DNA from: Eledone cirrhosa
Lineage: Eukaryota
NCBI GenBank assembly: GCA_964016885.1
Contig: OZ024741.1
Location: 287,122,001 to 287,186,000 of the forward strand
DNA: 64,000 nt
Direction: 5' to 3'
Shown one piece after another: positions 710 through 64,000 of the stretch. Every line of letters starts with the position of its first letter. Within the stretch, counting starts at the first letter, position 1. A model generated the notes under the pieces. It saw only the letters and a list, made by a program, of their open reading frames with translations. It was not told the DNA's origin and did no database searches. The translations under genes were made by a program, and so were the position numbers.

Positions 710-3700
710 CTAGCTTCTCAAGATTTGTATTGAGGCAGTTACTAACATATCCCAGTGCCCCATAAGCACAGGCATAAATCTGAAGGTGTAATCAGGGTGG
801 AGTATCTGCAGATTTCTCATCAGTTCTGCATAAATAATCTCCTTTTTGCTAATCTTTGATATTATATTGGCATCTGCTGGGCAGCTAATTTCCACTACTG
901 TGCATGCTTTCTTTTTCCTGTCCCATATCATAATATCTGGTCGGTTATGCCTGCATTTTATTGGGTTTTTTACTGGAACATTCCACCAGTACTCTTTCAT
1001 ATTATGTACATGGATGTCTTCCACATTGCTGTAGCTTTTAATGTGATTATTATCGGGGCTATCTTTTTTACGAACTGCATTGTACAGTGTTTTGGCCACA
1101 ACATCATGCCTCATAGGTAGATAGTACCGCGATGACATCTTTGGACAGCTGCTGATGACATGGGTGATATCCTCGATGTTAGTTCTGCAGAGTCTGCACT
1201 TGTTATCACATCTAGGTGTTTTGCCTGCATCTCTATCTCTTTTGTGAATCAGGTATTTCGTATTAATCTCCCGTTCTTGGATTGCAAAAGCGTATCCTTC
1301 AAAGTGGGAGCCAATATAGCGATTGTTGGTCCAAGATAGACTTCTTTCCTTATCTATATTACTCTCACTCTGGAGCTTCCTGGCAACATATCCATGCATG
1401 ATTTTTTGCTGATAAGCATGCAGTTTTCATCCATGGATTCACTGCGATACTGCTGAGCGACATCCCTGGGTGTGAGTTTTTGATTATCATACAGGGAATA
1501 TCTCTCGAGGAGTTCCTTCCCATCTCTCCTGATCTTATCAGGTAGACTTGCTCGAGAGACTGACTCCTACGCTTCGAGGTTCGTAGATGTCGGAGAGATA
1601 TGATACGACATTCAAATGCTGTCTGGACTGATGTTAAGCCTCTGCCTCCCTGCTTACGTTTCAAGTAAAGGCGGTCTATGATACTGTTGATGTGGAAGTT
1701 TCCGGTGTTGTTTAGTATTTTTCGAGTTCCAACATCAACTGCTCGGATTTCGTATATCGTCCAATTGATTCCAAACGATGGTGTTAGGACAGGCACCTCA
1801 AACACATTGTGAGTCACTGTTTTGTTTTGCGCAGAGAATTTCGATGACGAAATATTTCTTAATCGGGTGTAGTATTCCCTGGTTACGTATTCCTTACTAC
1901 AGATACCATTATAGGATATGTTCTCATCTAACGCCGGGTATCTGTAGCAGTCCTCATCAGATATCGGTGAAAGAGTTAGGCCATTGATGACAATGTTGCT
2001 AGATTGGGTTGTTGTTTTTCCCCGCTTTACACTCATGTATGAGCATTTATCTTGGCCAAACTCCATTCCTATATCCTTTGAGAACGTTGTAACCAGGTCA
2101 AGATTTTTCTTCATCCCATCCATATTCTTGGCATAGAGTTTCAGATCGTCCACAAAGAAATTATGGATTAGGTTCGTATTTCTGTCCTCCTGTGAGCCAA
2201 TGATGTATCCCAAATGTTTCTTGAGGAGAAAGGACAAGGGGCTTAATGACAAGATGAATAATATCACAGAGAGACTGTCTCCCTGAAATATACCCCTGCA
2301 ATATCTTATTTTATCAGTGAAAATAGAGTCCTCCCTCTATGTCTTTAACCTTAGGATAGTATCCCAAGAAGAAGACAGCCTCTCTATGGCTCTGACAATA
2401 ATGTCTGGGACTTTACCAAGTTGGAAGGCCTCTATCATCCAAGAGTGGGGAACAGAATCGAAAGCTTTCCTGTAGTCCAGCCAGACTGTAGTCATATTCC
2501 TCCTAAGTTGTTCCACCTCCGACATCGCAGTTTTGTTGATTAGGAGTTGTTCAGCACATCCCCAAACCCCTTTCTTTCCAACTGCTTGTTCATCTGTGAT
2601 GATGTTATTATTTTCACAGTGATCTTGGAGGAATAGGTTCAGGCAGGCTGTATACATCTTATACATCAGGTTCTGGCATGCAATGGGTCGGTAGTTTTTT
2701 GCCAAGTGGGTGTCTTTGTTCTTGGGGACCAGTAATGTTTGTGCTAATGTCAACCATTCTGGTATAAGTGTATTTCCCTTAAGAACTTGTTGGTAGAGGT
2801 CAGTAAGATACCTCCGATAGAATATCAGTTTTTTGTACCAGTAGCCGACAATCATGTCTCTTCCTGGTGTTTTCTTCTTCGAGTTTTTCTATCACAGTCT
2901 CAAGGGTACCCTCACTTATTTCGTATGTTTTTGTTGTAGTGTAGGAGCAATAGTTCTTTCGGATTTCTCTTAGCCACACTGCATCTTGGTTGAAATTCTT
3001 CTTTTTATCCCATATTTTGCTCCAAAAGGAATCTATGTCTTTCTGTGACACTTATTATTTTGTTCTTCATATCTCTATAGACTGATGTTTGGTTTCGTTT
3101 GAATCTTTTATTAAGCACTTTTCTCTCATCTACCTTCTTCAGGTATCGGCGTTTTTCGCTAACAGCTCTCAATTCTTGTTTGAGATTGATCAGCTTATAT
3201 TGAAGGGTTCTGGTTCTACTGTTACCAAACATTGTCTCTATTTTATTTTTCACTCTTTGTTGGTGAGGAGTGAGGTTTTTTTGTGTTTGTTTGCATGTAA
3301 GGAGCATTGTCACATGTCCTATGGTTTTTTGTAGGTCAGCAGTCTTTTTTTCTATTTTAGTTATATATGACGGTATCACTAAGATAATGCTTCACTGTCG
3401 TTGCTAAGGCATATAAACAGGCGTTGATTTGCCAAAATGTTGGGGTTTTTATCCGTCGTAAATATTTATCCCCTATTTCGTCAATAACACGTAACATTTT
3501 ATTATTTGGTTTTTTATTCACCATTGTTATTTTAACACGTTCAGCAAGAGAGATATTTATACATGAATAAATTTCTCTCTGGAAGATTTCGTTGAGGGAA
3601 ATTTTCAATTGTTTATAATTTTGATTATTATCATTATCGATAATATTTTCCACAACAGTCGAGGTAGACTCGGATGGTATACGTGGTGTCAAATTTCTTC

Positions 3701-4199
3701 GATTATTATTATTATTTCTTCGATTATTATTATTCGAGGTAGACTTATATGCTACAGGTGGTGTCAAGTTTCTTACAGGCATAGTTGTTTCAAGGCGCTG
3801 TTCGACCTTGCTGCTAGGAAGTCTAGTAACATGGCGACCTGTAGCACGTGTTGTTGATCCCATGTTTGTTGTGGGGGACTTATAATTAATACTATTTATC
3901 TTATTTTTACGTTCAACAAACATCGCTTGTTGGCGTAATTGTTTCGCTGTGAAATAATTTAGCTCTGGGTGCATTTCGTCCCAGTGTAGCTTCGTTCTGT
4001 TCATATAGTCAACGGAGGGATTGTTTTTTGCCATTTTATAACAATTAAATAAATTATTATTAAGTTCGCAACTCCAAGAGAAATGCGATTTATAATTTCG
4101 GTTTCTTCTGTAGCTACAACTGAATAAAATTTGTTTACCTCTCTTGTTGTTTGTCTTCGCTCCTTCCTTAAATTTGTTGTTGATGTTGTGTTCAGCCAT
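710..4199 (-). mobile_element. Frameshifted R4/Dong-clade-like non-LTR retrotransposon (RT + CCHC + restriction-like endonuclease)
   Basis: Collinear minus-strand ORF pieces 3357-4199, 3005-3379, 2800-3051, 2337-2855, 1365-2267, 710-1399. Motifs: NYRPIAC, WLDYRKAFDSVPH, FFVDDLKLY, RLYLKRKQGGRGL, CRLC..EDITHVISSC, RHDVVAK, RPDIMIWD..VVEISCP. Confidence 0.9.
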
Positions 4200-4424
4200 G
4201 CTGTTTGTAGAAAATCCTTGTAAAATGAATTATGTATTTAGTCGGATATCTCTACGAATTCGAATAAAAGGTGTCTTCAGAAGATATAGTTAGAAGAATA
4301 ACCAGTTATTCAAGCTGACTGTAGTTGTGGCATTACTGTCGGAGATAGTATTCATCTTAAATTTAATAAATAGTCTCCCACGCCAAAATATGCGACTGAT
4401 CGCGTTGACTGTATAGTATGCATG

Positions 4425-4725: not shown

Positions 4726-4797
4726 AAGTTATATTTAAAATTGTTGGGTTACAACTAGTAAATATTTATAACTGATATAAAAGCACTCGACAAATAT

Positions 4798-6432
4798 TTG
4801 CCAGTGAGATTGATCGCACCTTCAAAATCGGACCTGGGAAAATTAAGTGAAAGCATTCTTGACAGGGTGATACTGCAAATTAAGAACTTGGATTGTGTAT
4901 CTAACCTGAGCTTGTGGAAGGGAACTGGAGAGGTTGTTGAGTGGTTTAGGCAAATTAAATATGACAATAATAATAGGTTTATTCAACTTGATATAGCTAA
5001 CTATTATTCTTCTATTACCCCTAGTCTACTAAATAGGGCACTAAATTACGCATTCAAACATACGGACCTAACTAGCAAAGAAATGCATATTATATTATCG
5101 GCTAGGAAAACTCTGATAGAATTTAATGACAAATTATGGACTAGAGCAGATAGAGATAGCAATTTTGACATAACTATGGGATCTTCCGACTCAGCTCAGG
5201 TAACTGACCTTGTGGGCTTATTTTTAATCAATTCGCTACATAGGAAAATACCTGGTACTACCGGAGGTTTATATAGGGATGACATGCTTTTACTTATTAA
5301 TAATAATAACCCTGAACTAAATAGAAAATGTAAACAAATTACAAAATTTTTTAATTACTTTAACCTTAAAATAGAAATTGAGAACAACCATAGAATAGTC
5401 AATTTCCTAGATATAACATTAAATCTCAACACATGTCTCCACTATCCTTTTCACAAGTTGAATGAAAACTTAAACTATGTCAACTTTAACTCTAACCACC
5501 CCAGATCTGTCAAAAACACTATAGTAAACTCAGTCCAAAAACGTATCTCTAGGATCTCGTCGAATAAAAAGATTTTTGACGAAAAGGCCCAATACTATAA
5601 TGATGCACTAGCTAGGGCAGGGTATGCTGATAAGATTGTATACATAGATAATGATAGACAAACTAAACAAAGTAACAACTTTTTTAATTACGGCAACAAC
5701 ATTAACAACTATAATAGAAAGCATTACAATAATTCCAAAGGACAAAAAAGAAATAGAACTAGGAACATAATTTGGTTTGCCCCCCCTTTCTCACTAAACA
5801 TTAAAACCCACATCGCTAAATTATTTTTCAAAGCTCTTGATAATCGCTTCCCTAGAACACATAGGTATCACTCAATCTTCAATAGGCATACAATTAAATT
5901 AACCTACTCATCCACCAAAAATTTAGCACAAAATATTAATAGAATAAATAATAGGAACTTAAAACCTACTGATAATAGCATAAATAATATACAAGTTAAC
6001 AAATGTAACTGTAGAGATAGATCTAAATGTCCGTTAAATAACAACTGCTTAGTTAAAAATATAGTATACAATTGTAATGTTAATACTGACTCTAATTCTT
6101 TTAACTACGTCGGTTCCACATCGACGGAATTTAAACTTCGCTATAATAACCACAAGAATTCTTTCACAGACCCAAATAAAAAATCTTTAACGGCACTATC
6201 AGGGGTACTCTGGCAACTTAAGCTAGATAACGTTAGATATTCGACGGCTTGGAATATAGTCTCAAGAGGGATTCCTTTTAATTCATCCTCTGAGACATGT
6301 GACCTCTGTGCAGAGAAGATATTCTTTATACTAAAATCTAAAAACTCCCTTAACCTACGGACAAATTTATTCAGTTGTTGCAAACATAGATTAAACTCAA
6401 CGTTTAAATATAAATTTAAATTTAAAATGTAG
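4798..6432 (+). mobile_element. Penelope-like element family A, 5'-truncated, open RT + C-terminal GIY-YIG ORF
   Basis: FIQLDIANYYSSI, FDITMGS, GLYRDD, VNFLDITL, SNHP, CNC..CPL..C linker, NIVY..YVGST..FKLRYNNH (GIY-YIG), CDLC..LN.R..CCKH. Begins just after a TA run. Confidence 0.9.
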
Positions 6433-6619
6433 TATATTTAGTTTGATTTATATTTATATGAGAACTAGCCGATAAATCTTTTGATTCCTAAATCTTTGAT
6501 TCCCTCGTTTTACTCTTTTTATTGTTTATTTTATTTTATTTATTTTTATTTTTATCTAAACATTCCTCATGAAAAATTAAGCTACCCTAAAAGCCGATGC
6601 TCCAAATTTTTTGAATTAA

Positions 6620-6819
6620 NNNNNNNNNNNNNNNNNNNNNNNNNNNNNNNNNNNNNNNNNNNNNNNNNNNNNNNNNNNNNNNNNNNNNNNNNNNNNNNNN
6701 NNNNNNNNNNNNNNNNNNNNNNNNNNNNNNNNNNNNNNNNNNNNNNNNNNNNNNNNNNNNNNNNNNNNNNNNNNNNNNNNNNNNNNNNNNNNNNNNNNNN
6801 NNNNNNNNNNNNNNNNNNN
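6620..6819. other. Assembly gap (200 N)
   Basis: Run of n. Confidence 1.
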
Positions 6820-9742
6820 GTGCCGTATTGTTGTTATGAGTTGCGATTTAGATTTTTGAATGGGACGGATAGCACGGGGCCCAAGCCTTGGGTGTATCTT
6901 GAAGGCGATGCCAACATCATTTGGGCAGTGATGATGGAACATTTTCCACATCATGCAGATAATATAACGCTCACGGCGACGTTGGAGTGAGTAAAGTTTC
7001 AGGTTTTCTAATCGACCCCAGTAGTCAAGGTCTGACATGCCATCTATCTTTTTCGTGATTGCCCTTTGAGGAGCTTCAAGTTTCATGATACTTTGTTTCG
7101 TGTGGGGAGACCACAGTGGACAACAGTATTCAAGGTGTGGTCGGGCGAAAGTAGAGAAGAGAAGGATAATGGTGCGGGAATCTCTCGACTGGAAGGTTCT
7201 GAGGATCCAGGAACACATTCTGCGGGCCATGTCAACTTTGCTGCTTATATGCGTGGTCCAGCTTATGTTGCTGTCCACGGTTACTCCCAAGTCTCTGATG
7301 TTGTTAGATGCCACGAGAGTTTCCCCGGAGGGAAGGGAGTACGGGAGTTTCAGAGCATCCTCTTTTCCAAAGTGGATCAGTTCGAATTTGTCTTCGTTCA
7401 GTAACATGTTGTTCTTTTCTGCCCATTGGGTAACAGCCAGTAGGTCTGACTGAAGGCTTATCCGGTCATCCACGCCATTGATGACCTTTTGGAGCTTGGA
7501 ATCATCAGCGAAAATTTTAATGTTGCTGTGTTTGATGATGTCAGTGATGTCATTAATATAGATGATGAAGAGAAGTGGGCCCAACACAGTGCCTTGTGGG
7601 ACCCCACTACTGACTTTGGCTGGGCTTGATTTGACTCCCTCAACAACAACATGTTGGGTTCTGTTTGACAGGAAGCTCTTGATCCACTGCAGCAGCTTTC
7701 CAGTGACACCAATATTGGACAGCTTTCTCAGTAGAATGTTATAATCAACCCTGTCAAAGGCCTTGCTGAAATCAAGGTAGATAACATCAGTGTTGGAACC
7801 CTCTCCCAAGGCTCTCAAAATGTCATCAAAGTGATGCAGTAGCTGCGTCAGGCAATCCCTTCCATTACGGAATCCATGCTGGTTGGAGTTCAGCATATTG
7901 TTACTCTCAAGGAAGTGGGTCATTCGCGATCTCACCACTCGCTCAAATACCTTAATGATATGAGAGGTGAGTGAGATTGGACGGTAATTCACGGCAAGGG
8001 ATTTGTTTCCCTTTTTGAAAACTGGGACAACAGACTGGGATAGAAGGTTTTCTGGCACATATCCAGCATCCAGTGAGTTCCGCCATAGATTGGCAAGAGG
8101 AGATGCAAGTTGGTGTTGACACGCCTTCAAGACACAAGCAGGGAACCTATCGGGACCTACTGCTGAATTATGCTTGATTTCCTTTATTGCCGCCAAGACA
8201 TCAGGGGCGCCAAACGTTATGTCCGATAAGGTGTAATGGGGAGTAACATCGCCGATACAGCCCAGATCGGCCATATCAGGATTGCTGAAAACAGCAGTAT
8301 TGTTTCTGCAGTATCTCACCCATGGTTTTAGCATTGTCTTGAAGAGTGCCATTTTCATCAATTAGAGGGCCAACAGTAGAGCCAGTGATTTTGTGTTTTT
8401 TTGCAAATGAAAAGAACACTTTGGGATTGAGTTTGATCTTCTCAATGGCCCAGGCCTCTTCAGCTCTTCTCTGATTGTTGATGAGGGACATTATGTTGTT
8501 TTGGAGGTTATGTTTTTTAATCTCTAGTGATGAAATGGCAGTCAAGTTGATGTGTTGCTGCTGACAGTATTTCAGCTTGTTGATTTTTTTGTTCGTTCTC
8601 TTAATTTTTCTGATGAGCGTTTTTCTATTTCTAGGGATTCTGCTCTTAGATTTGTTTATAGTTCTTAATGGGGTGTGTTTAGCACATATGTTTGTAACAG
8701 TGTCCACAAATGTCTGCCAGGACTTTTTGATGTTAGTGGGTGTATGAGTGTGCGTGAAGGACCAGTCGACATGTGCAAGATCATGACTGATCGCTTCCCA
8801 GTTTGCATTGTGGAAATCCATAGCGTCAAACGGATGGACAGGAGAGATGACATTGGGTTTGTATATTGGACGGTGGAATCTCAGATCACAGAGAACCATG
8901 TCATGATCAGAGAGTAGAGTTTTCTCCACTGCAATATTGTGGATATTGTCAGTGTGATTGCTGAAAATTAAGTCTAGGACGTTTTTGTGGCACCTCGTTG
9001 GTTCGAGCACCAGTTGGGATAGGAAGAAATCATCCATGAAGTCAAGAAGCGATTCCACAGCTTCCCTGTCAGAGGTTGAGGCAGAAGAACCTGGTGGCAG
9101 GCTGTTTGTGGACCAGTCAACTCCGGGGAGGTTGAAGTCCCCCATCATTAAGATGTTGTCAGGGTGACACTCTTGGATGAAACACTTTATGCTGTTGAGG
9201 CATTCCTTGAAGCATGGTACAGGCGTTTGGGGTGGCCTATAGAGCCCAACTACTAATAGGTTGTTGGTTTGACTGAATACAGTGACTGCTTCACAGTATC
9301 CATTAGTGAATATGTTCATAGCCTCTGTTGAGAAAGAATTATGGACATAAATGGCAGTTCCGCCCTTTCTTCTGCCAGCGCGATCAGCACGGATGGCTTT
9401 GAAATTTTTCACTTTCACCTCGGCTTCCAAGTGGAGGTTACTGAGATGGGTTTCAGTGAGGACGAAGAAAGGGATGTGGTTTGGATGGACATCAATCCAG
9501 TCCTCCAAGAATTTGATCTTCCATTTTTGAGTATTGGTGGAAGGGCTGATGCCTTGGGCGTTAAGCAAAAATGTAGAGGCGAGAGTGGATGGTTTTAATT
9601 GTTTTGGTGTGTTGTTAATTTGTTTGTTTGTTAATGGCAGCAATGGGAGTTTGTGCAGTGGGGTGATAGTGGAGGGTAGTGCTGGGTGATAGCTCGAATG
9701 TTTTTTTCCAGTTCTTTTGCCAGATTCATTATGGCTAAACAA
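6820..9742 (-). mobile_element. CR1-group LINE ORF2 (APE endonuclease + RT), one frameshift near 8280-8360, 3' end lost in the gap
   Basis: EN: LLNAQGI, LTETHL, GDFNLP, LDLIF, SDHDMV. RT: NYRPISLTS, QHGFR, YLDFSKAFDRV, SGVPQGTVLGP, FADDSKL, LEYCCPLWSPH, LYSLQRRRER. Confidence 0.9.
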
Positions 9743-10632
9743 GAGGAAGAAGTTTCCTGTTTAGAAGACTGTTGGTGACTGTGGTAGTGGTTATTTTTAT
9801 GTAGGTTATGGTTTTTGTTTTTGCTTTTATTTTTAATTTTATTTTCATTTGTCCGACGGGTCCTCGGGAGATGGGTAAAGGGACAATCCCGGTCTAAACA
9901 CAATCTGTCTCGCAGGGAAAAACGGCAGATTTGTGGATTCCTTGTTTGAGTTATTGGTGGTTGTGTTGGTGTTAAATTAGAGTATGTATTATGGTGGTGG
10001 CTGTTTGTGGGGATAGATCGTTTTGTCCTAGGTAAATGGGTGAATTTGCAGCCACTATCCGTACATATTCTATAGCGTAGAGAGTAGCGGCAAATGATGG
10101 GGTTTCGAGTGGGTGGGTATGTGGGTGTGTGTGTTGTGAGAGGTGTAGATGATGGTTTGGGTAGGATTTGACGACCTTTGTGGACTGTGGGAGGGAGAGT
10201 TCTTGTACTGGTATTAGAAGGTAAATTCCTTGACATAGCAGTAGACAAAAATGTTGTAGTAGTAGTAGTAGGCAGAGATGTTGGCAGTGGTGATGATTGG
10301 ACTGCTGGGCCAGAGAAAGGATGTGGCGTTTCATGCTGTGAGACAGAGGCTACTGGGGGGTCAATAGTTTCATTTAGTAGATCGGCCATTGTTGATGAAT
10401 CAAGGAGTGGTTCACACTGTTGTTGTCGTTGTTGTTGCTGTTGTTGATGTTGTTGTTGTAGCTGTTGTTGTTGTTGCTGTTGTAGCTGCTGTTGTTGTTG
10501 TTGCTGCTGCTGCTGGACAGCATTCGAAGAGAAAACACACCGTAGTTTATCCAAATGTTTATTGATTAATTTAAAAGCAATTTCGATTTGCTTTAATTTA
10601 TTTTGAATCTGTTGTTCAGATCGAGTTTTCAA
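9631..10632 (-). CDS. ORF1 of the same LINE: coiled-coil/polyQ region and two CCCH zinc fingers
   Basis: Upstream of and overlapping ORF2. CRYSLRYRICTDSGCKFTH and CRFSLRDRLCLDRDCPFTH (Cx8Cx4Cx3H). True start codon uncertain. Confidence 0.7.
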   Translation of the reverse strand: MKTRSEQQIQNKLKQIEIAFKLINKHLDKLRCVFSSNAVQQQQQQQQQQLQQQQQQQLQQQHQQQQQQRQQQCEPLLDSSTMADLLNETIDPPVASVSQHETPHPFSGPAVQSSPLPTSLPTTTTTTFLSTAMSRNLPSNTSTRTLPPTVHKGRQILPKPSSTPLTTHTPTYPPTRNPIICRYSLRYRICTDSGCKFTHLPRTKRSIPTNSHHHNTYSNLTPTQPPITQTRNPQICRFSLRDRLCLDRDCPFTHLPRTRRTNENKIKNKSKNKNHNLHKNNHYHSHQQSSKQETSSSCLAIMNLAKELEKNIRAITQHYPPLSPHCTNSHCCH

Positions 10633-10807
10633 AAATTGAACTGTACGTTTAGCAATGTCGTTCAGAGATGAAGCATCTATATCTTCTGTTTGGGAAAGGC
10701 AATGCCATGTGTTTATTAGAATGTATATGTATATATATATATATATAGCGGCGATGAATTAGTTTTGCGAGGTTTTTTATATGAAATCGTGTGTCGAAAC
10801 AGATATT

Positions 10808-12707
10808 GTTATATTTGGGGAGGGTCATATTTGCGTAATATTGCCAGAATTAATAACAGAACACACTCACTGTTTGGTTGGTTTTCGCTTCTCGCTGTCT
10901 TTTATATATATATATCTGCGATCTAACTTACTCGGTCCTCAATGTTGCCATTGACTGACCGGCGGTCAAAAATAATACAGATACAATATAGACAAACACA
11001 TATATATATAGTTTACATAAATCTTTCGTTGCACATCTGCAACATCGTCAGTGGTGTTATATTCATTGTTCCTCCTGTTGTGTTGTATGTCTACGCCATT
11101 TTTTTTGTTCAGTCTGTCTATATATTTATTTATTTATTTGCTTGTTTGTTTATCTTATTTTATTTTGTCTTCTTTGCGCATGCGTTTGCGTGTGTGTATA
11201 GTGTTATGTGTGATGTGTGACTAGTGTGTATAGTGTTGTGTCTGCTGGGTGACTAGTGTGTGTTTATGTGCTTGTGTATGTATTTATTTATCTTATTTTA
11301 TTTAATTTAATTTACTTATTTATTTATACTTCTCTTAGGTCAGTGTTGTTTGTTTGGGTGTTGTTGTTGTTCCACTCATTCTTTCTGTTTAGCTTTGGTC
11401 TTCTAATTTCTATTTCACTGGCCTCTCTGATTTGCCTATCTGCTGGGTCATTCCTATGTTTAGATATTATTCTAATTTCTATGTTGTCTATGTTACCGTC
11501 ATGATGTTGTCTAGCATGTTCGTATAGTACTGACCCGTTTTTTCGTCCTTTTAGTTCCCCCCAGTGTTGGTCTATCCTTTCACCTATGCTACGAGCTGTC
11601 TCACCTATGTATGTTGTTGTCGTGTTTCTGCAAGTACCCTCTGTACATCTTATGCTATAGACTACGTTTCTAGTTTTACAGTTTATCCGGGGGTTCACCT
11701 TACATATGATACATTTCCTATTGGTACAGTGGGTTTTCTTAAAAGGGTAGGTTTTGCTGATCAGGGATTTTATGGTGGTTCCTGGCTTTTCTACCACCTT
11801 TATTTTTAAGTGGGTCTTTCTCAGGGCCTTTCTACACTGGTTAGCTAATTTCCCTCCAGGGGTGGCGTCCACAAACATGACACTCTGATATCTCTGGTTG
11901 TCGTACCATGATGTGGCCTTCCCTATCTTATGTCTAGCCCTATCTAAGCTATTCCATGATTTGCTCCTGTATAGTGGGCAAATTCCTTTCATGTCCAGTT
12001 CTATGAGGGTCTTATACTTTTCCATGGCTCCTTCGTATACTCTGACTCTGTCTCTTTGGTTGTAGCCAGAGAACTGCATGCGGTTGATGAAGTGTTGGAT
12101 GTGTCCTTCCATTTCTGTTGGGTCGCACATGCTGGACACATTCTTCATCACTCGTACCAAATCTGCGATCAGAATATTAAACTTAGCACTACTGGACATT
12201 GCTGAGTTTTTGAGTATCAGGTATTTGGAGGCCATGGGTTTAGCATAGTGTGAGTGGAGAATTTGGGCTCTCTCGTCTATAGTGTTAATCCAGAGTTCTG
12301 TGTCTAATACAGGTAGTCTATTGTTAGGGTGTTTGGAAGGGAAGTCTATAGTTACAGTTATACTCTGGTGTATGGAATTAGCTATCTGCTGGATGCTTTC
12401 CATCGTGCTACGTTCTAAATCAAACTTGTTAGTGCTCTCTAGTGGGGGTGTTCTTATAACTATATTGATATCGTCTACATAACGAGAGTACATGATGAGG
12501 TCTATGGAGCTTTCATTAAGGAGATCTTTAAGTCTCCTTTCCCACCATACCATGAAAAGGTTGGCAACATCGCCAGCTATGCTGACGCCGATGGCTGCTC
12601 CCTCATTTTGGGTGTAGATTTTCTCATTGAACTTAAATATGTGGCCCTTTAGGGTAGTTTTGATACTAGCCCCTATAGCATGTGCGACCATTTTTCTTAC
12701 CTGATCA
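10808..12707 (-). mobile_element. Penelope-like element family B, inverted 5'-truncated copy (ORF 11324-12691)
   Basis: Reverse complement of 12964-14863 (paired coordinates sum to 25671 wherever checked, no indel seen). GAAIG, YSRYVDD, VVY..YIGETARS..ER..QH. Confidence 0.93.
11006..11062 (-). ncRNA. Minimal type I hammerhead motif in PLE-B 3' UTR/pLTR
   Basis: Mirror image of 14609-14665. Confidence 0.55.
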
Positions 12708-14863
12708 TTGATTTTGCTGTGAAAAGATGTGTGGAGATGATCATTGAGAGTGAGGTGGAGTTCTGCGACGTCGACACAGACGAACTGGGCCTCCTACTTA
12801 GACTTACCTACGACACTGACTACCTAGACAGCCATGACCTTAGATGTTTCTGCCCTAGTAGACCTATAAGAGGTAGACCCCCCACCATAACCTCAATGGC
12901 TAAAAAGACTCCCATAGGAAGGTGGATTGGGTGGACCAAAGCTATACGGACCCCCCAAAACACTGATCAGGTAAGAAAAATGGTCGCACATGCAATAGGG
13001 GCTAGTATCAAAACTACCCTAAAGGGCCACATATTTAAGTTCAATGAGAAAATCTACACCCAAAATGAGGGAGCAGCCATCGGCATCAGCATAGCTGGCG
13101 ATGTTGCCAACCTTTTCATGGTATGGTGGGAAAGGAGACTTAAAGATCTCCTTAATGAAAGCTCCATAGACTTCATCATGTACTCTCGTTATGTAGACGA
13201 TATCAATATAGTTATAAGAACACCCCCACTAGAGAGCACTAACAAGTTTGATTTAGAACGTAGCACGATGGAAAGCATCCAGCAGATAGCTAATTCCATA
13301 CACCAGAGTATAACTGTAACTATAGACTTCCCTTCCAAACACCCTAACAATAGACTACCTGTATTAGACACAGAACTCTGGATTAACACTATAGACGAGA
13401 GAGCCCAAATTCTCCACTCACACTATGCTAAACCCATGGCCTCCAAATACCTGATACTCAAAAACTCAGCAATGTCCAGTAGTGCTAAGTTTAATATTCT
13501 GATCGCAGATTTGGTACGAGTGATGAAGAATGTGTCCAGCATGTGCGACCCAACAGAAATGGAAGGACACATCCAACACTTCATCAACCGCATGCAGTTC
13601 TCTGGCTACAACCAAAGAGACAGAGTCAGAGTATACGAAGGAGCCATGGAAAAGTATAAGACCCTCATAGAACTGGACATGAAAGGAATTTGCCCACTAT
13701 ACAGGAGCAAATCATGGAATAGCTTAGATAGGGCTAGACATAAGATAGGGAAGGCCACATCATGGTACGACAACCAGAGATATCAGAGTGTCATGTTTGT
13801 GGACGCCACCCCTGGAGGGAAATTAGCTAACCAGTGTAGAAAGGCCCTGAGAAAGACCCACTTAAAAATAAAGGTGGTAGAAAAGCCAGGAACCACCATA
13901 AAATCCCTGATCAGCAAAACCTACCCTTTTAAGAAAACCCACTGTACCAATAGGAAATGTATCATATGTAAGGTGAACCCCCGGATAAACTGTAAAACTA
14001 GAAACGTAGTCTATAGCATAAGATGTACAGAGGGTACTTGCAGAAACACGACAACAACATACATAGGTGAGACAGCTCGTAGCATAGGTGAAAGGATAGA
14101 CCAACACTGGGGGGAACTAAAAGGACGAAAAAACGGGTCAGTACTATACGAACATGCTAGACAACATCATGACGGTAACATAGACAACATAGAAATTAGA
14201 ATAATATCTAAACATAGGAATGACCCAGCAGATAGGCAAATCAGAGAGGCCAGTGAAATAGAAATTAGAAGACCAAAGCTAAACAGAAAGAATGAGTGGA
14301 ACAACAACAACACCCAAACAAACAACACTGACCTAAGAGAAGTATAAATAAATAAGTAAATAAAATAAAATAAAATAAGATAAATAAATACATACACAAG
14401 CACATAAACACACACTAGTCACCCAGCAGACACAACACTATACACACTAGTCACACATCACACATAACACTATACACACACGCAAACGCATGCGCAAAGA
14501 AGACAAAATAAAATAAGATAAACAAACAAGCAAATAAATAAATAAATATATAGACAGACTGAACAAAAAAAATGGCGTAGACATACAACACAACAGGAGG
14601 AACAATGAATATAACACCACTGACGATGTTGCAGATGTGCAACGAAAGATTTATGTAAACTATATATGTATGTGTTTGTCTATATTGTATCTGTATTATT
14701 TTTGACCGCCGGTCAGTCAATGGCAACATTGAGGACCGAGTAAGTTAGATCGCAGATATATATATATAAAAGACAGCGAGAAGCGAAAACCAACCAAACA
14801 GTGAGTGTGTTCTGTTATTAATTCTGGCAATATTACGCAAATATGACCCTCCCCAAATATAAC
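12706..14863 (+). mobile_element. Penelope-like element family B, forward 5'-truncated copy (open frame to 14347, then ~515-nt 3' UTR/pLTR)
   Basis: RT motifs B' (QNEGAAIG) and C (RYVDD), PVLDTELW, Cys-rich linker CTNRKCIIC, GIY-YIG VVYSIRC..YIGET, LNRKNEW end. Abuts a (TA)n array. Confidence 0.93.
14609..14665 (+). ncRNA. Minimal type I hammerhead motif in PLE-B 3' UTR/pLTR
   Basis: CUGACGA (14620-26), extra U, stem II GUUGCA/UGCAAC, GAAA, GAUU loop, UA. Stem I is weak (CA/UG, internal loop, AUAUA/UAUAU). Confidence 0.55.
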
Positions 14864-20092
<5,229 letters not shown>

Positions 20093-21033
20093 GTTATATT
20101 TGGGGAGGGTCATATTTGCGTAATATTGCCAGAATTATTAACAGAACACACTCACTGTTTGGTTGGTTTTCGCTTCTCGCTGTCTTTTATATATATATAT
20201 CTGCGATCTAACTTACTCGGTCCTCAATGTTGCCATTGACTGACCGGCGGTCAAAAATAATACAGATACAATATAGACACAAACACATATATATAGTTTA
20301 CATAATTTACATAAATCTTTTGTTGCACATCTGCAACATCGTCAGTGGTGTTATATTCATTGTTCCTCCTGTTGTGTTGTATGTCTACGCCATTTTTTTT
20401 GTTGAGTCTGTCTATATATTTATTTATTTATTTGCTTGTTTGTTTATCTTATTTTATTTTGTCTTCTTTGCGCATGCGTTTGCGTGTGTGTATAGTGTTA
20501 TGTGTGATGTGTGACTAGTGTGTATAGTGTTGTGTCTGCTGGGTGACTAGTGTGTGTTTATGTGCTTGTGTATGTATTTATTTATCTTATTTTATTTAAT
20601 TTTATTTACTTATTTATACTTCTCTTAGGTCAGTGTTGTTTGTTTGGGTGTTGTTGTTGTTCCACTCATTCTTTCTGTTTAGCTTTGGTCTTCTAATTTC
20701 TATTTCACTGGCCTCTCTGATTTGCCTATCTGCTGGGTCATTCCTATGTTTAGATATTATTCTAATTTCTATGTTGTCTATGTTACCGTCATGTTGTTGT
20801 CTAGCATGTTCGTATAGTACTGATCCGTTTTTTCGTCCTTTTAGTTCCCCCCAGTGTTGGTCTATCCTTTCACCTATGCTACGAGCTGTCTCACCTATGT
20901 ATGTTGTTGTCATGTTTCTGCAAGTACCCTCTGTACATCTTATGCTATAGACTACGTTTCTAGTTTTACAGTTTATCCGGGGGTTCACCTTACATATGAT
21001 ACATTTCCTATTGGTACAGTGGGTTTTCTTAAA
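20093..21033 (-). mobile_element. PLE-B third copy, 3' portion only (Cys linker, GIY-YIG, 3' UTR)
   Basis: Near-identical to 10808-~11743. Its hammerhead G12 is mutated (20321) and there is an adjacent 9-bp duplication. Confidence 0.92.
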
Positions 21034-21221
21034 TATATATATATGGATGTATATATAATGTATTTTGCAATACACTTTATATATTGCTATTTCAGAGCCC
21101 CAATTCTAATTTTTAATTTCTGCCTGACCAACAACCGCTCTGCATAATCAGCTCCTGATTATTTACTAGATTTCTATAAGAATATAACATCAATGATCTC
21201 AGCAAACAGGTGGGGTAGTTG

Positions 21222-21263
21222 GCCTTGATAAGCTTCAACCAAAGCGAAACAAGTCTTGTCGGC
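21222..21263 (+). ncRNA. Type I hammerhead ribozyme, U3-A8 variant, predicted cleavage after 21260
   Basis: GCC-UUGAUAA-GCUU(CAACCA)AAGC-GAAA-CAA(GUC)UUG-UC-GGC. Stem I extends to 21194/21288. Confidence 0.8.
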
Positions 21264-21537
21264 TTATCTCCCCTGTTTGCTGAGATCAAAGTGAGTGAAT
21301 TTGTCACTACTTTAAAACAATAGCTTACGGTCTTCAAAATGCTTTTAATTAAGCATAAAGTGTATTGCAAAATACATTATATATACATCCATATATATAT
21401 TGCTATTTCAGAGCCCCAATTCTAATTTTTAATTTCTGCCTGACCAACAACCGCTCTGCATAATCAGCTCCTGATTATTTACTAGATTTCTATAAGAATA
21501 TAACATCAATGATCTCAGCAAACAGGTGGGGTAGTTG

Positions 21538-21579
21538 GCCTTGATAAGCTTCAACCAAAGCGAAACAAGTCTTGTCGGC
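21538..21579 (+). ncRNA. Type I hammerhead ribozyme, unit 2, predicted cleavage after 21576
   Basis: Identical to 21222-21263. Confidence 0.8.
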
Positions 21580-21853
21580 TTATCTCCCCTGTTTGCTGAG
21601 ATCAAAGTGAGTGAATTTGTCACTACTTTAAAACAATAGCTTACGGTCTTCAAAATGCTTTTAATTAAGCATAAAGTGTATTGCAAAATACATTATATAT
21701 ACATCCATATATATATTGCTATTTCAGAGCCCCAATTCTAATTTTTAATTTCTGCCTGACCAACAACCGCTCTGCATAATCAGCTCCTGATTATTTACTA
21801 GATTTCTATAAGAATATAACATCAATGATCTCAGCAAACAGGTGGGGTAGTTG

Positions 21854-21895
21854 GCCTTGATAAGCTTCAACCAAAGCGAAACAAGTCTTGTCGGC
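21854..21895 (+). ncRNA. Type I hammerhead ribozyme, unit 3, predicted cleavage after 21892
   Basis: Identical to 21222-21263. Confidence 0.8.
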
Positions 21896-22148
21896 TTATC
21901 TCCCCTGTTTGCTGAGATCAAAGTGAGTGAATTTGTCACTACTTTAAAACAATAGCTTACGGTCTTCAAAATGCTTTTAATTTAGCATAAAGTGTATTGC
22001 AAAATACATTATATATACATCCATATATATATTGCTATTTCAGAGCTACAATTCTAATTTTTAATTTCTGCCTGACCAACAACCGTTCTGCATAATCAGC
22101 TCCTGATTATTTACTAGATTTCTATAAGAATATAACATCAATGATCTC

Positions 22149-22250
22149 ATTACACAAATATGACCCTCCCCAAGTATAACAATATTGTTATACTTGGGGA
22201 GGGTCATATTTGTGTAATAATATTACCAGAATTAATAACAGAACACACTC
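22149..22250. mobile_element. PLE-B terminal module variant forming a 70-bp perfect palindrome (22149-22218)
   Basis: attacacaaatatgaccctccccaagtataacaat|attgttatacttggggagggtcatatttgtgtaat. Confidence 0.85.
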
Positions 22251-22492
22251 AGCAAAATCAGTGAGTGCAACAAAAACAGGAACCTATCCAACTGCATAAT
22301 AGGCAGTATGGATGTGGTATCACTGTACCCAACCATTAACATTGATTTTGCTGTGGAAAAATGTGTGGAGATGATTATTGAGAGTGAGGTGGAGTTCTGC
22401 GACGTCGACACAGACGAACTGGGCCTCCTACTTAGATTTACCTACGACACTGACTACCTAGACAGCCATGACCTTAGACGTTTCTGCCCCAG
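22251..22492 (+). mobile_element. PLE-B internal fragment containing RT motif A
   Basis: IIGSMDVVSLYPTINIDFAVEKCVEMIIESE..FCPS. Overlaps 12706-12860 and extends it upstream. Confidence 0.88.
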
Positions 22493-23774
22493 TATACATA
22501 TATATATATATATCATAAATCATGTGCTTAGAATTATTAGATAAAATATATACCATTTCCTCTCCCAATTAGCATAATTAACCATATAAAAAATCAATTA
22601 GACCAAGCTATAAGAAGAAAGGCTCTTATGAAGAAATTTCCGACAAATAACCGAAAGTGGCCTCTTCGCGGTGGCCCCAATAGAGTATTTATCCAACATT
22701 TCGACAGCATGTAGAAACTGACTAAATATACCATCAACCATACACAATTTGGTGTAAAATTAAACTTATATATATATATATATATATATACATATATCGT
22801 AGGTTTTTGTAGTTATATTTGTCGAGCGAACAACATGAGATAAGCCGAAGAATTTATTGTTCCAATACACCATTATCATAACATCGCCTATCCGAATATT
22901 GCACTCGAATTTGTACAAAATATATGTAGCATGCTTCGACAGCCTGGATATGTACTCACTTCAGCAGATGCTGTTCATATACAAGAAGTTAATATTTTTT
23001 CATTTGTAAGTAAATAATATATTTATCTTCCAAATGTATCCCCTTTAGCAAATATAAAATCAATCAGTAGTAACATTTTTATCGGTGAACAAATAAGGTA
23101 CAAGAAAGATGACAAGATCGATATATAAAGCTAATGCTTCTGCACAGACATTGAAAACATTGGTTTCAATACAGTAACACCACAATTATAAAATATCTGT
23201 AAGTAGTAAATTAAGTGGAATCTATTTCAGTTAACGACAGAGCCGTAAAAGATAAGAGTAATTCCGTCGAAATTTGAATTAAGAAAAGGAAGGTTTGCAA
23301 TAAATGTCTTTACTGTTTTTAAACAACCACACTAGTGTTTTAATTGTGATTACTTTCACCTTAATCAGGCTATGATGTTGACTTCTTATTTAGGCACAAG
23401 ATAAACAAATTTGAGGAAAGGCAAAGTTTGGACTTGAACTCAGAATGTAAATATCCAGAACGAATACCACAATGGCATTTCATCTAACACTCTACCTCCC
23501 TTTAATTAGGCTATAAACAAAGGGAGAATTATAGCAGCTAGGGGAAATTCCACTCCACTGTTGTTTACATAATTCTTCGTAATGGAGTGAAGGGATGAGA
23601 AATTGCTAGTACAGTGATCGATCGATTGATAAATGCTATGATGCCCCAGATGTGAGTGACTAACGATGTGGAACGACGACGCCAAACAAGGATGTTGTGA
23701 AATCAGTGTAATGAAATCAAATTTTAAAATAAAGTAAACTGAACTGTCAATGGAAGCCATTGGGTTTCACATTG

Positions 23775-29567: not shown

Positions 29568-29637
29568 TTTATGTATGTAATCACGTGTGTGTGTACAGAC
29601 ATATATATATATGTATGTAAATATATTTATATACACA

Positions 29638-29702
29638 CAGTGAGTGTGTTCTGTTATTAATTCTGGCAATATTATTACACAAATATGACCCTCCCCAAGT
29701 AT

Positions 29703-29707
<5 letters not shown>
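29638..29707 (+). mobile_element. Solo PLE-B terminal module followed by (TA)n
   Basis: cagtgagtgtgttctgttattaattctggcaatattattacacaaatatgaccctccccaagtataac, the same variant as at 22186-22250. Confidence 0.85.
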
Positions 29708-29776
<69 letters not shown>

Positions 29777-53240: not shown

Positions 53241-53241
<1 letters not shown>

Positions 53242-54088
53242 AAGTGCGACGACGTGCTCGGAGAGACGCTGGGCTTCGAAGACGTCGAGCTGACCAGTCT
53301 GTTCGGTAGGACTTTCCGCCCGGGATCTATGGACAACTTCCACAGGTCCCTGGCCTGGCAGTGCTACCGAGGAGCTCTGCCAGTAAGCGATAATATCTAC
53401 AGGCACGGGTGCCCCGGCAGGGATCCTTCAAAGGGGACGTGTCCAAGATGCGAGCGGGACATTGAAACCGTCCTGCACGCAATTGTACACTGCCCGGGCG
53501 TAACCGACCTGTGGAACTACGCAGAATAACTGCTGTCGCGTGTGGGATAAATCCAGTTGACTGCCGAGTCCATATTAAGGATCAAACCACCACCTTCATT
53601 TAAAAACGAAAGAGAGGCGGTTTTCCTCTGTATAGTGGCTATGGTGAATAAGGTTATATGGTGGACCAGGTTGAGAGGACTGAGGACAGATGCCTTTGTC
53701 TCTGGACAACAACTCATTCCCTTCTTTAGATACCACTTAAAAGGAGAATCAGAGTGGAGAAAGAGGTACTGCATCCCAGGTACCTACTGAAAGTGGATGA
53801 ATGTAGCAAAAATGGCCCGAGTGATTGGGCCTTCTCTGTATATAAACCTGTAGGTTGAAGAAGAGAGCAAAGGGAAGAAAGGAGCACTTGCACAACATGC
53901 TCCTGGAGTTGAGGGTTGTTCTATCTACGGGGTATAAAACAACCCATGTATAACGCCTCCCTCCTATTGGGGATTTCAATTGTTGAATTTGTATGGTAAC
54001 CATTTTTACACGATTGAATATAAAATCCCTGCCATGTCTTTGTATTGTCCCCTTTTCTTGTGCACCCTTGTGGCAAATAAATAAAGAA
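53241..54088 (+). mobile_element. Tx1/L1-like element copy 1 (3' fragment) between (TATC)n tracts
   Basis: CPRC..ETVLHAIVHC zinc knuckle. Ends gtggcaaataaataaagaa then (atct)n. Confidence 0.9.
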
Positions 54089-54166
<78 letters not shown>

Positions 54167-54179
54167 TTAGCTATCTATC

Positions 54180-54210
<31 letters not shown>

Positions 54211-54229
54211 CTATTTATCTATCTATCTA

Positions 54230-57200
54230 GGGGCCTGTCCCGATAGAGAGGGGTGTAATAGCCTCAAAGGGTTAATCGGTCGATTTGACCTGGCCGATAG
54301 ATATCGACTAGATTTTCCGACTGCGCCAACCTGGACTTGGGCAAATCGTAGCGGAACATCTAGGTCGTACCTAGATAGGTTCTTAGTTAGAATTAAGGAT
54401 AAGGACTTTTTAAGTTGTCCAAAAATGCGCATGGTTGGCTATTCAGACCACAAATTAGTGACCTGCATGGTCAACCTTGACAGAACTCATAGACAGGGAC
54501 CCGGTTACTGGAAGCTCAACTTGTCCTTACCGGCAAGTAAGGCTTACAGGAACCGGATTAGCACTTTAGTTAAGGAGCGGTTGACGGGCGCCATCGTCAA
54601 CAGCAGGTGGTGGGGATCTCTCAAAAGAGAGATTAGAGTAGTCTCTATAGAATTTAGTAAGGAGTTAGCCTCCAATAGAAATAGGAAGGAAAGGGAGTTG
54701 GTAGATAGTGTAGAAGAGGCAATTAGAAGCGGCGACGTGGCCAGAGTGCTAGCGTCGAGAACGGCCCTGGGCCAGTTCTTCGACGCGAAACACGAAGGCT
54801 GCATCGTCCGAAGCAAAATACGTGCTCTGGGAAACGAGGGGACCAAAGCTGTTAGCTGTGCCCGCGTGACAGAAGCCAAAAGAGGGAGCAGATCCACTAT
54901 CCGGTCTTTGCGAGACCAGGATGGACGGGTGATCCTTGAACCTAAGCAGATGTGCGAGGCTTTTCAAAAGCACTTTGCCGAATTGTTCGGAAGGGGCGGG
55001 GGGCCGGTTGGGGACGTGGACTTCGGTCCATACCTCGACGGCCTGCCGCGTCTCTCGGACAGGGAGGCGAAGTCCTGCGAGGAGCCGATTTCAGCCGCTG
55101 AGATAGAGGACGTGCTGAGCCAATGCGGCAAACGCAAATCCCCGGGTCTCGATGGTCTTCCATACGAACTATATCTAGCTATGCCGGACTTGTTCCCCGA
55201 ACTCCTCGAGGCGGTCTACTGCAACTGGCGACAGAACGGGAGAATTCCCTGTGCTGTGACCAAGGGCGTAGTCACGCTAGTGAGGAAGGACGAGAACAAG
55301 GGGGACGATATACATAATTTCAGGCCCATAACTCTGCTAAATACAGAGTTACAGATTTTGGCCAAGGTGCTAGCAAAGAGGTTGGCGCTTGTCGTGGGCA
55401 ACCTGGTGGGAGATGCGCAGACATGTGCTATCCCGTCCAGGTCCATCCACGATAACCTCCACCTCATGCGATACATCATAGAGAGGGTTGGGAACGAACC
55501 CGGCTTTGGTGGGGCCCTGATCAACTTGGATCAATCTAAGGCATTCGATAGGGTCGACCATGGTTACCTGGATGCGGTGCTAGCGGCGGCAGTCTTCGGA
55601 CCCGTTTTCAGGGGCTGGATCAATGCCATGCACAGCAGCCGCATCTGCTCTAGGGTCAAGGTGAACGGCTACCTCTCGGAGCCGTTCGAAATCGCGCGGT
55701 CCATCCGACAGGGGTGCCCTCTCTCCTCCCTTCTGTATGTAGTGACTCTAGAGCCACTGCTGCGGAAGTTGGAGTTGTTGCAGGGCATCCCGTTGGAACC
55801 GGGATTGCGGAAAGCGGTGTCAGCCTACGCCGATGACGTAACAGTAATGGTGTCGACGGCCTCGGAAATCGGGGCGATCGGCACCTTACTGGAGGAGTAC
55901 GAAAGGTTTACAGGGGCTAAGCTGAACCGGGACAAGTCGATCGGTCTGCAACTCGGCACGTGGAGGGGCAGATCGATGCCCTCCGATGGCGTCGTCGGGC
56001 GCTGGACGGAGGTCCCGGTGAAATTGCTCGGGGTCTGGTTCGGACCAGACCTCCAGGTGGAGAAGAACTGGGGTGAGGTGACGAGCAGGGTGTTTGCACT
56101 GACCCAGAAGTGGGCCGAGTGCAAACTGTCCCTGAAAGGTCGGGCGGAGGTGGAGAACACTTATATAGCGTCCGTCATCTACTACCGCCTGACCGTGGTG
56201 CCTTGCCCAAGGGAAACGCTCGCCAAAATGGAGCGCGCACTCTTCCAATTCCTTTGGAAGAAGCGGGCTCCTATGGTGAGGAGATCCATCTGCTGTCAAC
56301 ACCCTTCGAAAGGAGAGCTGGGGATGCCGTGGCTGATGATACGTAAACACGCATTAAGGCTACGGCACCTTCAGGTATTCCTCTCCGGTCAACCGGTGTG
56401 GGCCCCGTTTGTGAGGCGAGCCTTTCCCAGACTCGTCTCACTCACCGAGCTGCAATCCTGGGTCAAGCAAAGACCGAGAAAACTGGGCGCCTGGCACACC
56501 GAGTGTGCCCAGGCGCTCACGGCTCTCTGGCAGGCGGACCCGGCTGTCAGTGGAGAATCCACCTCGTCATTCTATAGAGGGCTGGTGGTTAGCAGGTGCG
56601 ACGACGCCCTCGGAGAAGCCCTAGGCATGGAGGAAGACGAACTGGCCAACCTGTTCGGTAGGACATTCAGTCCGGGACCCATGGATAACTTCCAGAGGTC
56701 CCTGGCCTGGCAATGCTACAGAAGGGCTCTGCTCGTTCGAGAAAGGCTCTACAGACACGGGCGCCCGGGTAGGGACCCATCGAAAAAGGTCTGTCCCAGA
56801 TGCGTGTGCGACGAGGAAACCGTTGCACACGCATTGGTACACTGCTCGGGCATTGCCGATCTGTGGGGCTATGTCGAACAACTGCTGTCAAGGGTGGGAC
56901 CGATCCGGTTGACCACCGAGTCTATTGTAACGATCAAGCCGCCTCCCCTCTTCAAAAACGAAGGAGAGGCGGTGTTTCTGTGCGTAATAGCCATGGCGAA
57001 AGAGGTTGTATGGTGGACGCGTCTGAAAGGACTGAGGTCAGACACCTTTCTCTCTGGCCAACAACTGGTCCGTTTCTTCCGATATCATTTCGGAAGAAGG
57101 ATCAGGATGGAGAGAGAGGTGCTGCACCCCAGCCGTTTCTATGAAAGATGGGTGAAAGTGGCGAGAATGGCCCGTGTGAATGGGCCTTCACTCTACATCA

Positions 57201-57472
57201 GACTATAGGTGAGGAAGATGAAAGACCAAGGGAGCACCCCTTCTCTGTGCTCCTGAGGAGAAGGGTTGCACACTTTTTTCGGGGGTGTGTGCGACCCCCC
57301 AAGGCGCCTCCTCTCTATTGAGGACTTTGTTATAAATTTTATTTATTGTTATATTTTATTTTATTTTTATATATTGTTATTGCCTCCTCCTTATTGAGGA
57401 CGGCTTGTTTTGTAAACTCCCCCCATTGTACTTGTCCCACTTTTGATGCCCTGGTGGCAAATAAAAGAAACA
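54230..57472 (+). mobile_element. Tx1/L1-like element copy 2, open ORF2 from mid-endonuclease to stop at 57208
   Basis: SYLDRF, YSDH, GPGYWKLN, SPGLDGLP, FRPITLLN, LDQSKAFDRVDH, RQGCPLS, AYADDV, CPRC..ETVAHALVHC. Confidence 0.95.
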
Positions 57473-57510
57473 TATCTATCTATCTATCTATCTCTCTATC
57501 TATCTATTTA

Positions 57511-59533: not shown

Positions 59534-59589
59534 TATCTATCTATTTACCTCTCTATCTCCCTCTCGATCTCTCTATTCATCTATCCACA

Positions 59590-62124: not shown

Positions 62125-62799
62125 TATATCTATTTAACTATCTATCTATCGTTCTACCTATCTATCTGTATGTGTGGGTGTTTTGTTTGAATGAGACAAA
62201 GTAACTGAATTTACTGCTTTAAAAACAGTTATTCATTATTCCCTGTACATTTCCATATTGTTTGTTTATCTTTCTAAATTTAATTACAGTTGTTTAGGAC
62301 ACGTAGTTGTCATCTAGCAATACAAGAAACAAATGGCTAAATTACTGCAAAATTTTTAAACGCGATGGGATCGTAAATTCATGCAAATAATTCTGGAAAA
62401 TAATTCCAAATTTATTTCCTTTATTCTTGCAGGCTTGTAATTATTTTGTCTCTATTCCTAATTCTGTGCCGTTTTCATTCATTTTTGTAGTTTGCTCTAT
62501 TCCCGTTTCTTTCTATATATTGCCTTGTTTCATTTTAACTGTGAATAATTTCCAGGAAGAATACCAAACGCACAAAACGTGCTTGTTCTTGAAATAGTTT
62601 TTCATTTCCTTAGAATTATTTCTGTAGAAAAACATTTTGTAATACGATCCTGGAATCAATTCCAACGCAAAATGTTAATCAGGCAAATATTTTTCAGTTC
62701 CGGTATTAGAAAATACCGTAATTATATTCGAGTTTAATGAAACGCTTCTTATATTCTGTCATAGCCGTTAAGGTGATTTCAATGATTTTCTGAAGTAAA

Positions 62800-63609: not shown

Positions 63610-64000
63610 TTAGTTTACAGATTATGCATTTCTTATCTATACAGGGAGGTCTTTGAAAAGGGTATACCCTTTTCAAAGACCTCCCTGTATAGATAAGAAA
63701 TGCATAATCTGTAAACTAAGCCCTCATATTAACTGTAAAACTAGAAATGTAGTATATAGCATAAGATGTACTGAAGGACAATGTAAAGATAATAATATAG
63801 TGTACATAGGTGAGACAGCTCGTAGTATAGGAGAACGGTTAAATGAACACTGGCGAGAGCTTCAAGATAAAAAAGAATCATCAATACTCCACCAACATGC
63901 TAAAATAGAACATAAGAGCAAATTAGAGAACATAGAAATAAAGATAGAATCTACACACAGAAAAGACGCAATGTTTAGACAAATCACAGAGGCAATAAAC
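63610..64000 (+). mobile_element. PLE family B-related 3' fragment with a 110-bp perfect palindrome at its 5' junction, running off the window
   Basis: From 63665: YPFQRPPCIDKKCIICKLSPHINCKTRNVVYSIRCTEGQC..YIGETARSIGERL. Confidence 0.9.

Follow-up and report, generated by a model that had tools for sequence, protein, structure and literature searches.

Non-LTR retrozymes of animals have been described as non-coding tandem repeats of ~300 nt with low GC content and one type I hammerhead per unit, and Penelope-like elements (PLEs), which co-exist with them, have been named strong candidate mobilisers (Cervera and de la Pena 2020, PMC7229834). In that description a circular template is proposed, with tandem cDNA and, when present, larger target duplications. 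A preprint reads retrozymes as non-autonomous derivatives of PLEs, on which they would depend, from co-occurrence and pLTR homology in Xenopus; its main text mentions neither "tail" nor "template switch" (Li, Clavereau, Pollet, bioRxiv 10.64898/2026.07.22.740005). PLEs themselves (Neptune, Nematis, Naiad and Hydra) leave inverted 5′-truncated copies at (TA)n targets, often with a tail of 30-40 bp at one end, and the non-autonomous Chlamys elements generally resemble the 3′ end of their partner (Craig et al. 2021, PMC8557442). In vitro, the Poseidon element PAc cuts and extends both strands; two internal RT start sites bound its tail, the protein is predicted to be a dimer, unprocessed RNA is the main substrate, and the start sites show no strand bias and are not homologous to the target (Frangieh et al. 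2024, PMC11167929).

The published support for PLEs as mobilisers of animal retrozymes consists of co-occurrence and pLTR likeness. Here we describe a retrozyme family whose insertion scars themselves carry a PLE signature, with strict pairing of two end sites (46/46) and arms from one RNA lineage. The family matches the retrozymes of PMC7229834 in repeat size, low GC content, hammerhead and co-existing PLEs; unlike them, most of its copies have a pair of inverted arms whose ends are fixed and lie in (TA)n, one of the arms bearing a tail. Dependence on PLEs agrees with the preprint, whereas our evidence is the insertion scar, and no homology between our unit and four local PLE ends was found. 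Compared with the PLEs of PMC8557442, the retrozyme has no ORF but shares the inverted arm, the one-end tail and the (TA)n target; in contrast to the Chlamys elements reported there, it does not resemble a partner's 3′ end. Relative to PAc as characterised in PMC11167929, the two retrozyme sites are strictly paired in each insertion, each of them at TA-like sequence. Retrozymes of animals and their proposed mobilisation by PLEs have been published before; for the family-level insertion signature, a PLE-type scar of two arms and one tail, we found no precedent among retrozymes in the open-access literature. The block in which the retrozyme was noticed adds little itself and is most likely a hot-spot pile-up.

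A 316-nt tandem repeat with a predicted hammerhead

The window, a stretch of 64,000 nt from a genome of ~3.0 Gb, contains 3.4 tandem copies of a 316-nt unit, with no long ORF over the array and a regional GC content of 0.34. These values fall within those of retrozymes (tandem non-coding repeats of 150-450 nt, GC under 50%). The unit folds far better than its shuffles (z = -6.8), and a descriptor search found in it a type I hammerhead motif whose core is of the U3-A8 form, a variant described before (PMC4209133), and whose stems have 4, 4 and up to 5 pairs. The motif, with its core boxes and three stems, occurs in three copies in the array:

21221-21264, plus strand: type I hammerhead motif 1, within a long hairpin; predicted cut after 21260
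21537-21580, plus strand: type I hammerhead motif 2; predicted cut after 21576
21853-21896, plus strand: type I hammerhead motif 3; predicted cut after 21892

The predicted cut corresponds to unit position 176. Judged by eye, stems I and II keep their pairing through changed bases in older subfamilies. The lowest-energy fold of the unit does not form the catalytic core, and Rfam at the gathering score returned 0 matches over the whole window. The descriptor search matched the retrozyme hammerhead only and not PLE motifs. By motif and tandem layout we classify the unit as a non-LTR retrozyme, with self-cutting activity of its hammerhead as a prediction. Among the listed sequencing runs that match the unit, none is an RNA run; matches came from runs of four organisms in four studies (47-71% of words), and PLE-B pieces are present in four of those runs.

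Genome-wide, the young retrozyme family yielded 783-792 search candidates and carries 1.75 private substitutions per unit, while an older family at ~70% identity yielded 2887 candidates. At the 76 loci that we read, the retrozyme is a dispersed, multi-locus family without an LTR layout. These distinct loci are the top search hits and are biased toward long young copies; same-place duplicates, copies under 93% identity and a one-arm array of ~29 units (L071/L072, G000:C1:293635236-293643479; 25 whole units read, with higher-order repeats) were excluded. Rows labelled "PLED" near retrozymes are, except at L108, another repeat inside the query and were not counted as PLE.

Retrozyme insertions carry a PLE-type signature

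Two arms are present at 61/76 loci and are head-to-head in all 61, so that both outer ends are 3′ ends. The arms overlap by 1-23 nt at 48 of these loci, abut bluntly at 5 and are joined with extra bases at 8. The 3′ ends of the retrozyme occupy two fixed positions: site 1, at unit position 316, and a point 26-34 nt beyond it (the tail). From there they continue into (TA)n, the same type of target as in local PLEs. All 46 loci with two TA-joined ends combine site 1 with the tail, and 0 combine site 1 with site 1. At two nominally tail-plus-tail loci the second end runs into non-TA DNA; 13 more loci have one off-site end and 15 have a single arm. No poly(A) ends were seen in the retrozyme flanks inspected.

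The local PLE-B family behaves similarly: among 21 pairs other than the flagged one, exactly one tail occurs in 20, two tails in 1, and no pair is without a tail. A textbook two-armed PLE-B copy lies at window 10749-14868, with 1912-bp arms that are 100% complementary, a 56-nt tail on the left arm only and TA at both ends.

The retrozyme family therefore combines what marks a PLE-mobilised element, namely an inverted 5′-truncated arm, two fixed start sites with one tail, and a (TA)n target. Such scars suggest insertion by a borrowed PLE protein, and we consider it highly probable that PLE machinery mobilises the family. The original prediction had made the same proposal from the flagged block; the evidence that makes it likely comes from the other copies. 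That prediction had also anticipated permuted start points and had counted fixed ends as evidence against itself; retrozyme 3′ ends are fixed, in the manner of PLEs. Its call for a genome-wide search bore out (TA)n targets, with direct fusion to a PLE at only 2/76 loci. Local alignments of the unit with the 3′ ends of PLE families and subfamilies A, B1, B2, C and D score within the range of shuffles (at least 118 of 300 shuffles reach each score).

Both arms of a locus come from one source

The arms of a locus agree in the common allele at position 119 in 34/34 loci, at 121 in 33/34 and at 170 in 38/40. Furthermore, they share a rare substitution at 11/61 loci (shuffled mean 0.58; 0/5000 shuffles reach 11). 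The two arms of a locus come from one source. Among fixed-end arms, 82/88 extend past the predicted hammerhead cut, which points to an uncut multimer or a circle as the template.

Variation among units bears on which of these was copied. At six loci (L017, L018, L029, L086, L126 and L276) a variant common to both arms is confined to a single unit, a pattern that copying of one monomer circle cannot produce. On these sequences, the six loci appear to fit a heterogeneous multimer better than one circle; the shared unit-specific variants could also be gene conversion between arms, and later duplication of units may contribute to such patterns. In-register variants are shared between arms in 13 cases and unshared in 138, and some loci have variants in all units of their array. 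Higher-order repeats in the long arrays L107, L109 and the C1 array indicate that unit number can grow after insertion. In the array of the flagged block, units 1-3 carry a common variant that unit 4 lacks, so its 3.4 units are no evidence of the rolling copy of one circle that had been proposed for it.

These observations lead us to propose the following mechanism. A PLE protein, probably a dimer, would cut both strands of (TA)n. One cut strand would prime reverse transcription at unit position 316 and the other 26-34 nt downstream, both copying the same uncut, probably multimeric retrozyme RNA toward its 5′ end, and the two cDNAs would then be joined through short overlaps. That retrozyme copies are a genomic record of exactly this process (a PLE dimer, one cDNA per fixed site, an uncut multimeric RNA and no circle) is the reading we lean toward, with modest confidence. 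For the existing in vitro PLE assay, the retrozyme offers a substrate of 316 nt in which two start positions are predicted, and its scars provide a way to distinguish a circle from an uncut multimer.

Structure of the flagged block

The retrozyme array lies in a block at 20091-22496, next to a (TA)n-rich tract. The tract and the pieces of the block, labelled a-f from left to right, are:

14864-20089, no strand: (TA)n-rich tract of ~5 kb, the shared target
20091-21034, minus strand: piece a, 5′-truncated fragment of PLE-B subfamily B1 (end of the endonuclease domain and 3′ UTR)
21035-21080, minus strand: piece b, short retrozyme arm, exact reverse complement of unit positions 271-316
21078-22149, plus strand: piece c, long retrozyme arm, 3.4 units of 316 nt with 99% matches
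22149-22182, plus strand: piece d, last 33-34 nt of PLE-B subfamily B2, without tail
22185-22251, minus strand: piece e, PLE-B2 3′ end, short arm of a head-to-head pair with piece f
22248-22496, plus strand: piece f, PLE-B RT-domain fragment, ending in TA at ~22492-22496

The contiguous series that was first noted here (PLE-B fragment, inverted piece, 3.4 units, palindrome and RT fragment) is present throughout, with some boundaries revised. Piece a is 97.7% identical to window 10803-11743 and carries 3 private substitutions in 942 nt; its 3′ end is fixed, in TA and without a tail, and its 5′ break is at a recurrent PLE-B break site. The inverted segment, first put at 47 bp, is real and exact over 46 nt, reaching 47 only if the A at 21034, shared with the PLE, is counted. 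It ends at site 1 of the retrozyme family. It had been described as the segment preceding unit 1; strictly, it overlaps the forward arm by 3 nt, since piece c begins at unit position 310 (unit position 1 is 21085) and both arms contain unit positions 310-316. At the left junction, a short run of TA serves at once as the end of the retrozyme itself and as the target motif. The right end of piece c, at unit position 117, is away from both fixed sites and overlaps piece d by only 1 nt.

The reported palindromic PLE terminus at 22149-22218 is indeed a 100% palindrome of 70 bp, and can be refined as two B2 3′ ends lying tail to tail around a TA: piece d is an exact inverted copy of the start of piece e, and a single TA (22183-22184) separates them. 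Pieces e and f overlap by 4 nt (22248-22251). The RT fragment, piece f, is likewise real; 22340-22502 is 95% identical to window 12706-12868, and the piece carries 4 private substitutions in 247 nt. None of the contigs from five public sequencing runs bridges the block junctions, so the junctions are those of this assembly alone, and no empty-site or intermediate haplotype was seen in those contigs. Isolated short PLE-B termini within TA tracts also occur at window 15850-15963 and 29634-29710.

The block is probably a pile-up of insertions

The block was originally interpreted as one composite insertion. We regard it as probably a pile-up of separate insertions at one TA tract, because its parts recur alone and its brackets do not match. 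Piece a has a twin, L032, with the same break and TA tracts on both sides but without a retrozyme; 3/28 close PLE-B copies, and two more distant ones, break within 3 nt of the same point. Piece b starts at the normal site 1, and equally little TA lies beyond 5/87 other fixed ends. The 15 off-site retrozyme ends join varied DNA, a PLE terminus following only that of the block. The end at unit position 117 recurs adjoining non-PLE DNA (L299 and one contig of run X6), and stand-alone pairs resembling e and f occur without a retrozyme (L202 and L205). The two PLE brackets differ in subfamily, B1 on the left and B2 on the right, and neither outer end of the block has a tail, unlike 21/21 other PLE-B pairs. 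A chimera formed by template switching from a single PLE-B RNA predicts one tail and one subfamily, and the block shows neither. Piece f is also more diverged than piece a (4/247 vs. 3/942, P = 0.04, from only 7 substitutions).

Some observations run counter to a pile-up. Both retrozyme flanks are PLE-B with almost no spacer, and direct retrozyme-PLE fusion is rare, as noted above. The bare tail-to-tail palindrome is unique among 31/31 candidates, although one contig of run X2 has two PLE ends tail to tail with 7 letters between them. Piece d carries a common B2 end (18-19/124 termini), so its sequence cannot separate a fold-back from an independent insertion.

As a pile-up, the history of the block may have begun with pieces e and f as an older B2 insertion, with piece a as a stand-alone B1 fragment. 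The retrozyme would have primed at the TA end of piece a, giving piece b, while its other arm, piece c, joined DNA already present; piece d would be either what remains of a B2 copy or piece e copied by fold-back. Taken jointly, insertion of the retrozyme by a borrowed PLE protein and a block built from at least two or three insertions is a reading that we favour with reasonable confidence.

Alternatively, a PLE-B particle may have begun cDNA synthesis on its own RNA and switched, at a single junction, to a retrozyme RNA bound alongside it, either from d to c after ~34 nt or from a to b at the recurrent break, which would make B the partner. Such a partial switch accords with the missing spacer at either junction, including the 1-nt overlap of c and d, with the abundance of short PLE-B terminal arms, with the age of B1, which is about as young as the retrozyme, and with heterologous head-to-head fusions elsewhere (L113 with PLE-C, L108 with PLE-D and L089 between PLE-B and PLE-A). 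However, the start of piece b coincides exactly with the usual TA-primed site of the family, the break of a is found elsewhere without the retrozyme and the 117 end without a PLE, and piece d is B2, apparently older than the retrozyme. Neither junction was found a second time (19/19 scored; 40 scored of 613 with another query), a joint query of PLE and unit gave no other fused copy among the matches listed (40 scored of 975), and 117 loci fetched with PLE queries, some overlapping, contain 0 fused retrozymes. We consider a partial switch unlikely, and hold the same doubt about the wider proposition that the family-level record stands and the block caught a jump from PLE-B RNA to retrozyme RNA with B as partner.

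Similarity to PLEs could instead be convergent, the retrozyme having been inserted by a non-PLE enzyme such as a LINE with twin priming, or spread at the DNA level. Twin priming leaves one native 3′ end and non-overlapping arms. The start of piece c where b is primed is what twin priming gives, LINE fragments are present in the window, and the unit shows no sequence likeness to local PLE ends. Against this, the retrozyme has a 3′ end on either outer side, at two fixed sites, its arms overlap in register and the flanks inspected lack poly(A) ends, and we judge convergence improbable.

A single insertion of the whole block, in which synthesis alternated between PLE RNA and the rolling copying of a 316-nt circle, has still less to recommend it. 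Contiguity of all pieces is what it predicts, retrozyme circles are documented in other animals (PMC7229834), and a circle would allow both arms that pass the predicted cut and variants found in every unit of an array. It nevertheless needs three RNAs (B1, B2 and retrozyme) and six segments, and conflicts with the tailless outer ends, the deviating unit 4, the six loci with a between-arm variant in one unit only, and the higher-order repeats through which unit number can grow after insertion; we regard it as very improbable. Finally, assembly errors beside the 5-kb TA tract, which the unbridged junctions and an N gap at window 6620-6819 might suggest as the source of the fusions or the palindrome, are hardly credible given that all pieces and all types of junction are matched at other genomic loci and that the units differ from one another at defined positions.

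Candidate PLE partners

On the original prediction, the block would identify family B as the autonomous partner. PLE-B is plausible in this role but is not singled out, since PLE-A has the same architecture, PLE-C shares the PLE-B end motif and has a tail, and retrozyme arms abut PLE-C and PLE-D as well. Besides PLE-B, two of these families are represented in the window:

4762-6620: PLE-A, 556-aa open frame with Hydra-type motifs
63610-64000 (and L091:1-450): PLE-C, sister of PLE-B (71% at the DNA level)

PLE-B encodes a CX2-5CxxC linker and a CCHH motif (Neptune/Nematis type), and PLE-A has CxCX5C without CCHH (Hydra type). Pfam gave a weak RVT_1 match for PLE-B and none for PLE-A or piece f. 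PLE-A is young (1472 candidates, the best 40 at 98-100%) and is two-armed, head-to-head and one-tailed in 3/5 loci read. Tails measure 26-34 nt in the retrozyme, 44-56 nt in PLE-B and ~85 nt in PLE-A. The PLE-C hammerhead, placed by eye, lies ~138 nt before site 1, compared with 140 nt in the retrozyme. B1 is the leading candidate because the motifs of PLE-B are of Neptune/Nematis type and B1 is of roughly the same young age as the retrozyme, and we name it tentatively; PLE-C or an unseen relative is a possible but weaker candidate, PLE-A a doubtful one, and any other partner appears quite unlikely.

Other hammerhead-like motifs were noted in these elements: a minimal one in the PLE-C 3′ UTR and, by eye, one ~55 nt before the end of PLE-A and a PLE-B motif that looks degenerate. 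PLE-C also has a 110-bp palindrome centred near the site homologous to the recurrent break of PLE-B.

Fusions between families take several forms. At L113:907-2000 an older-family retrozyme is joined head-to-head to an arm of PLE-C, and a further inverted piece of that older family adjoins the extended tail of PLE-C. L108:1-2667 contains a young retrozyme arm whose 5′ end is fused to a decayed copy of PLE-D, a fourth PLE family with ~24% amino-acid identity to B. A PLE-B arm stands head-to-head with a PLE-A arm at L089:2174-6500, neither tailed and without a retrozyme.

Other features of the window

Two broken elements with RT-like frames, one also with an endonuclease-like frame, lie at window 710-4229 and 6820-9760; judging by their motifs we take them to be of LINE type. 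A GC-rich repeated block occupies window 53241-62167 and includes a 528-bp near-perfect palindrome at 59590-60117.
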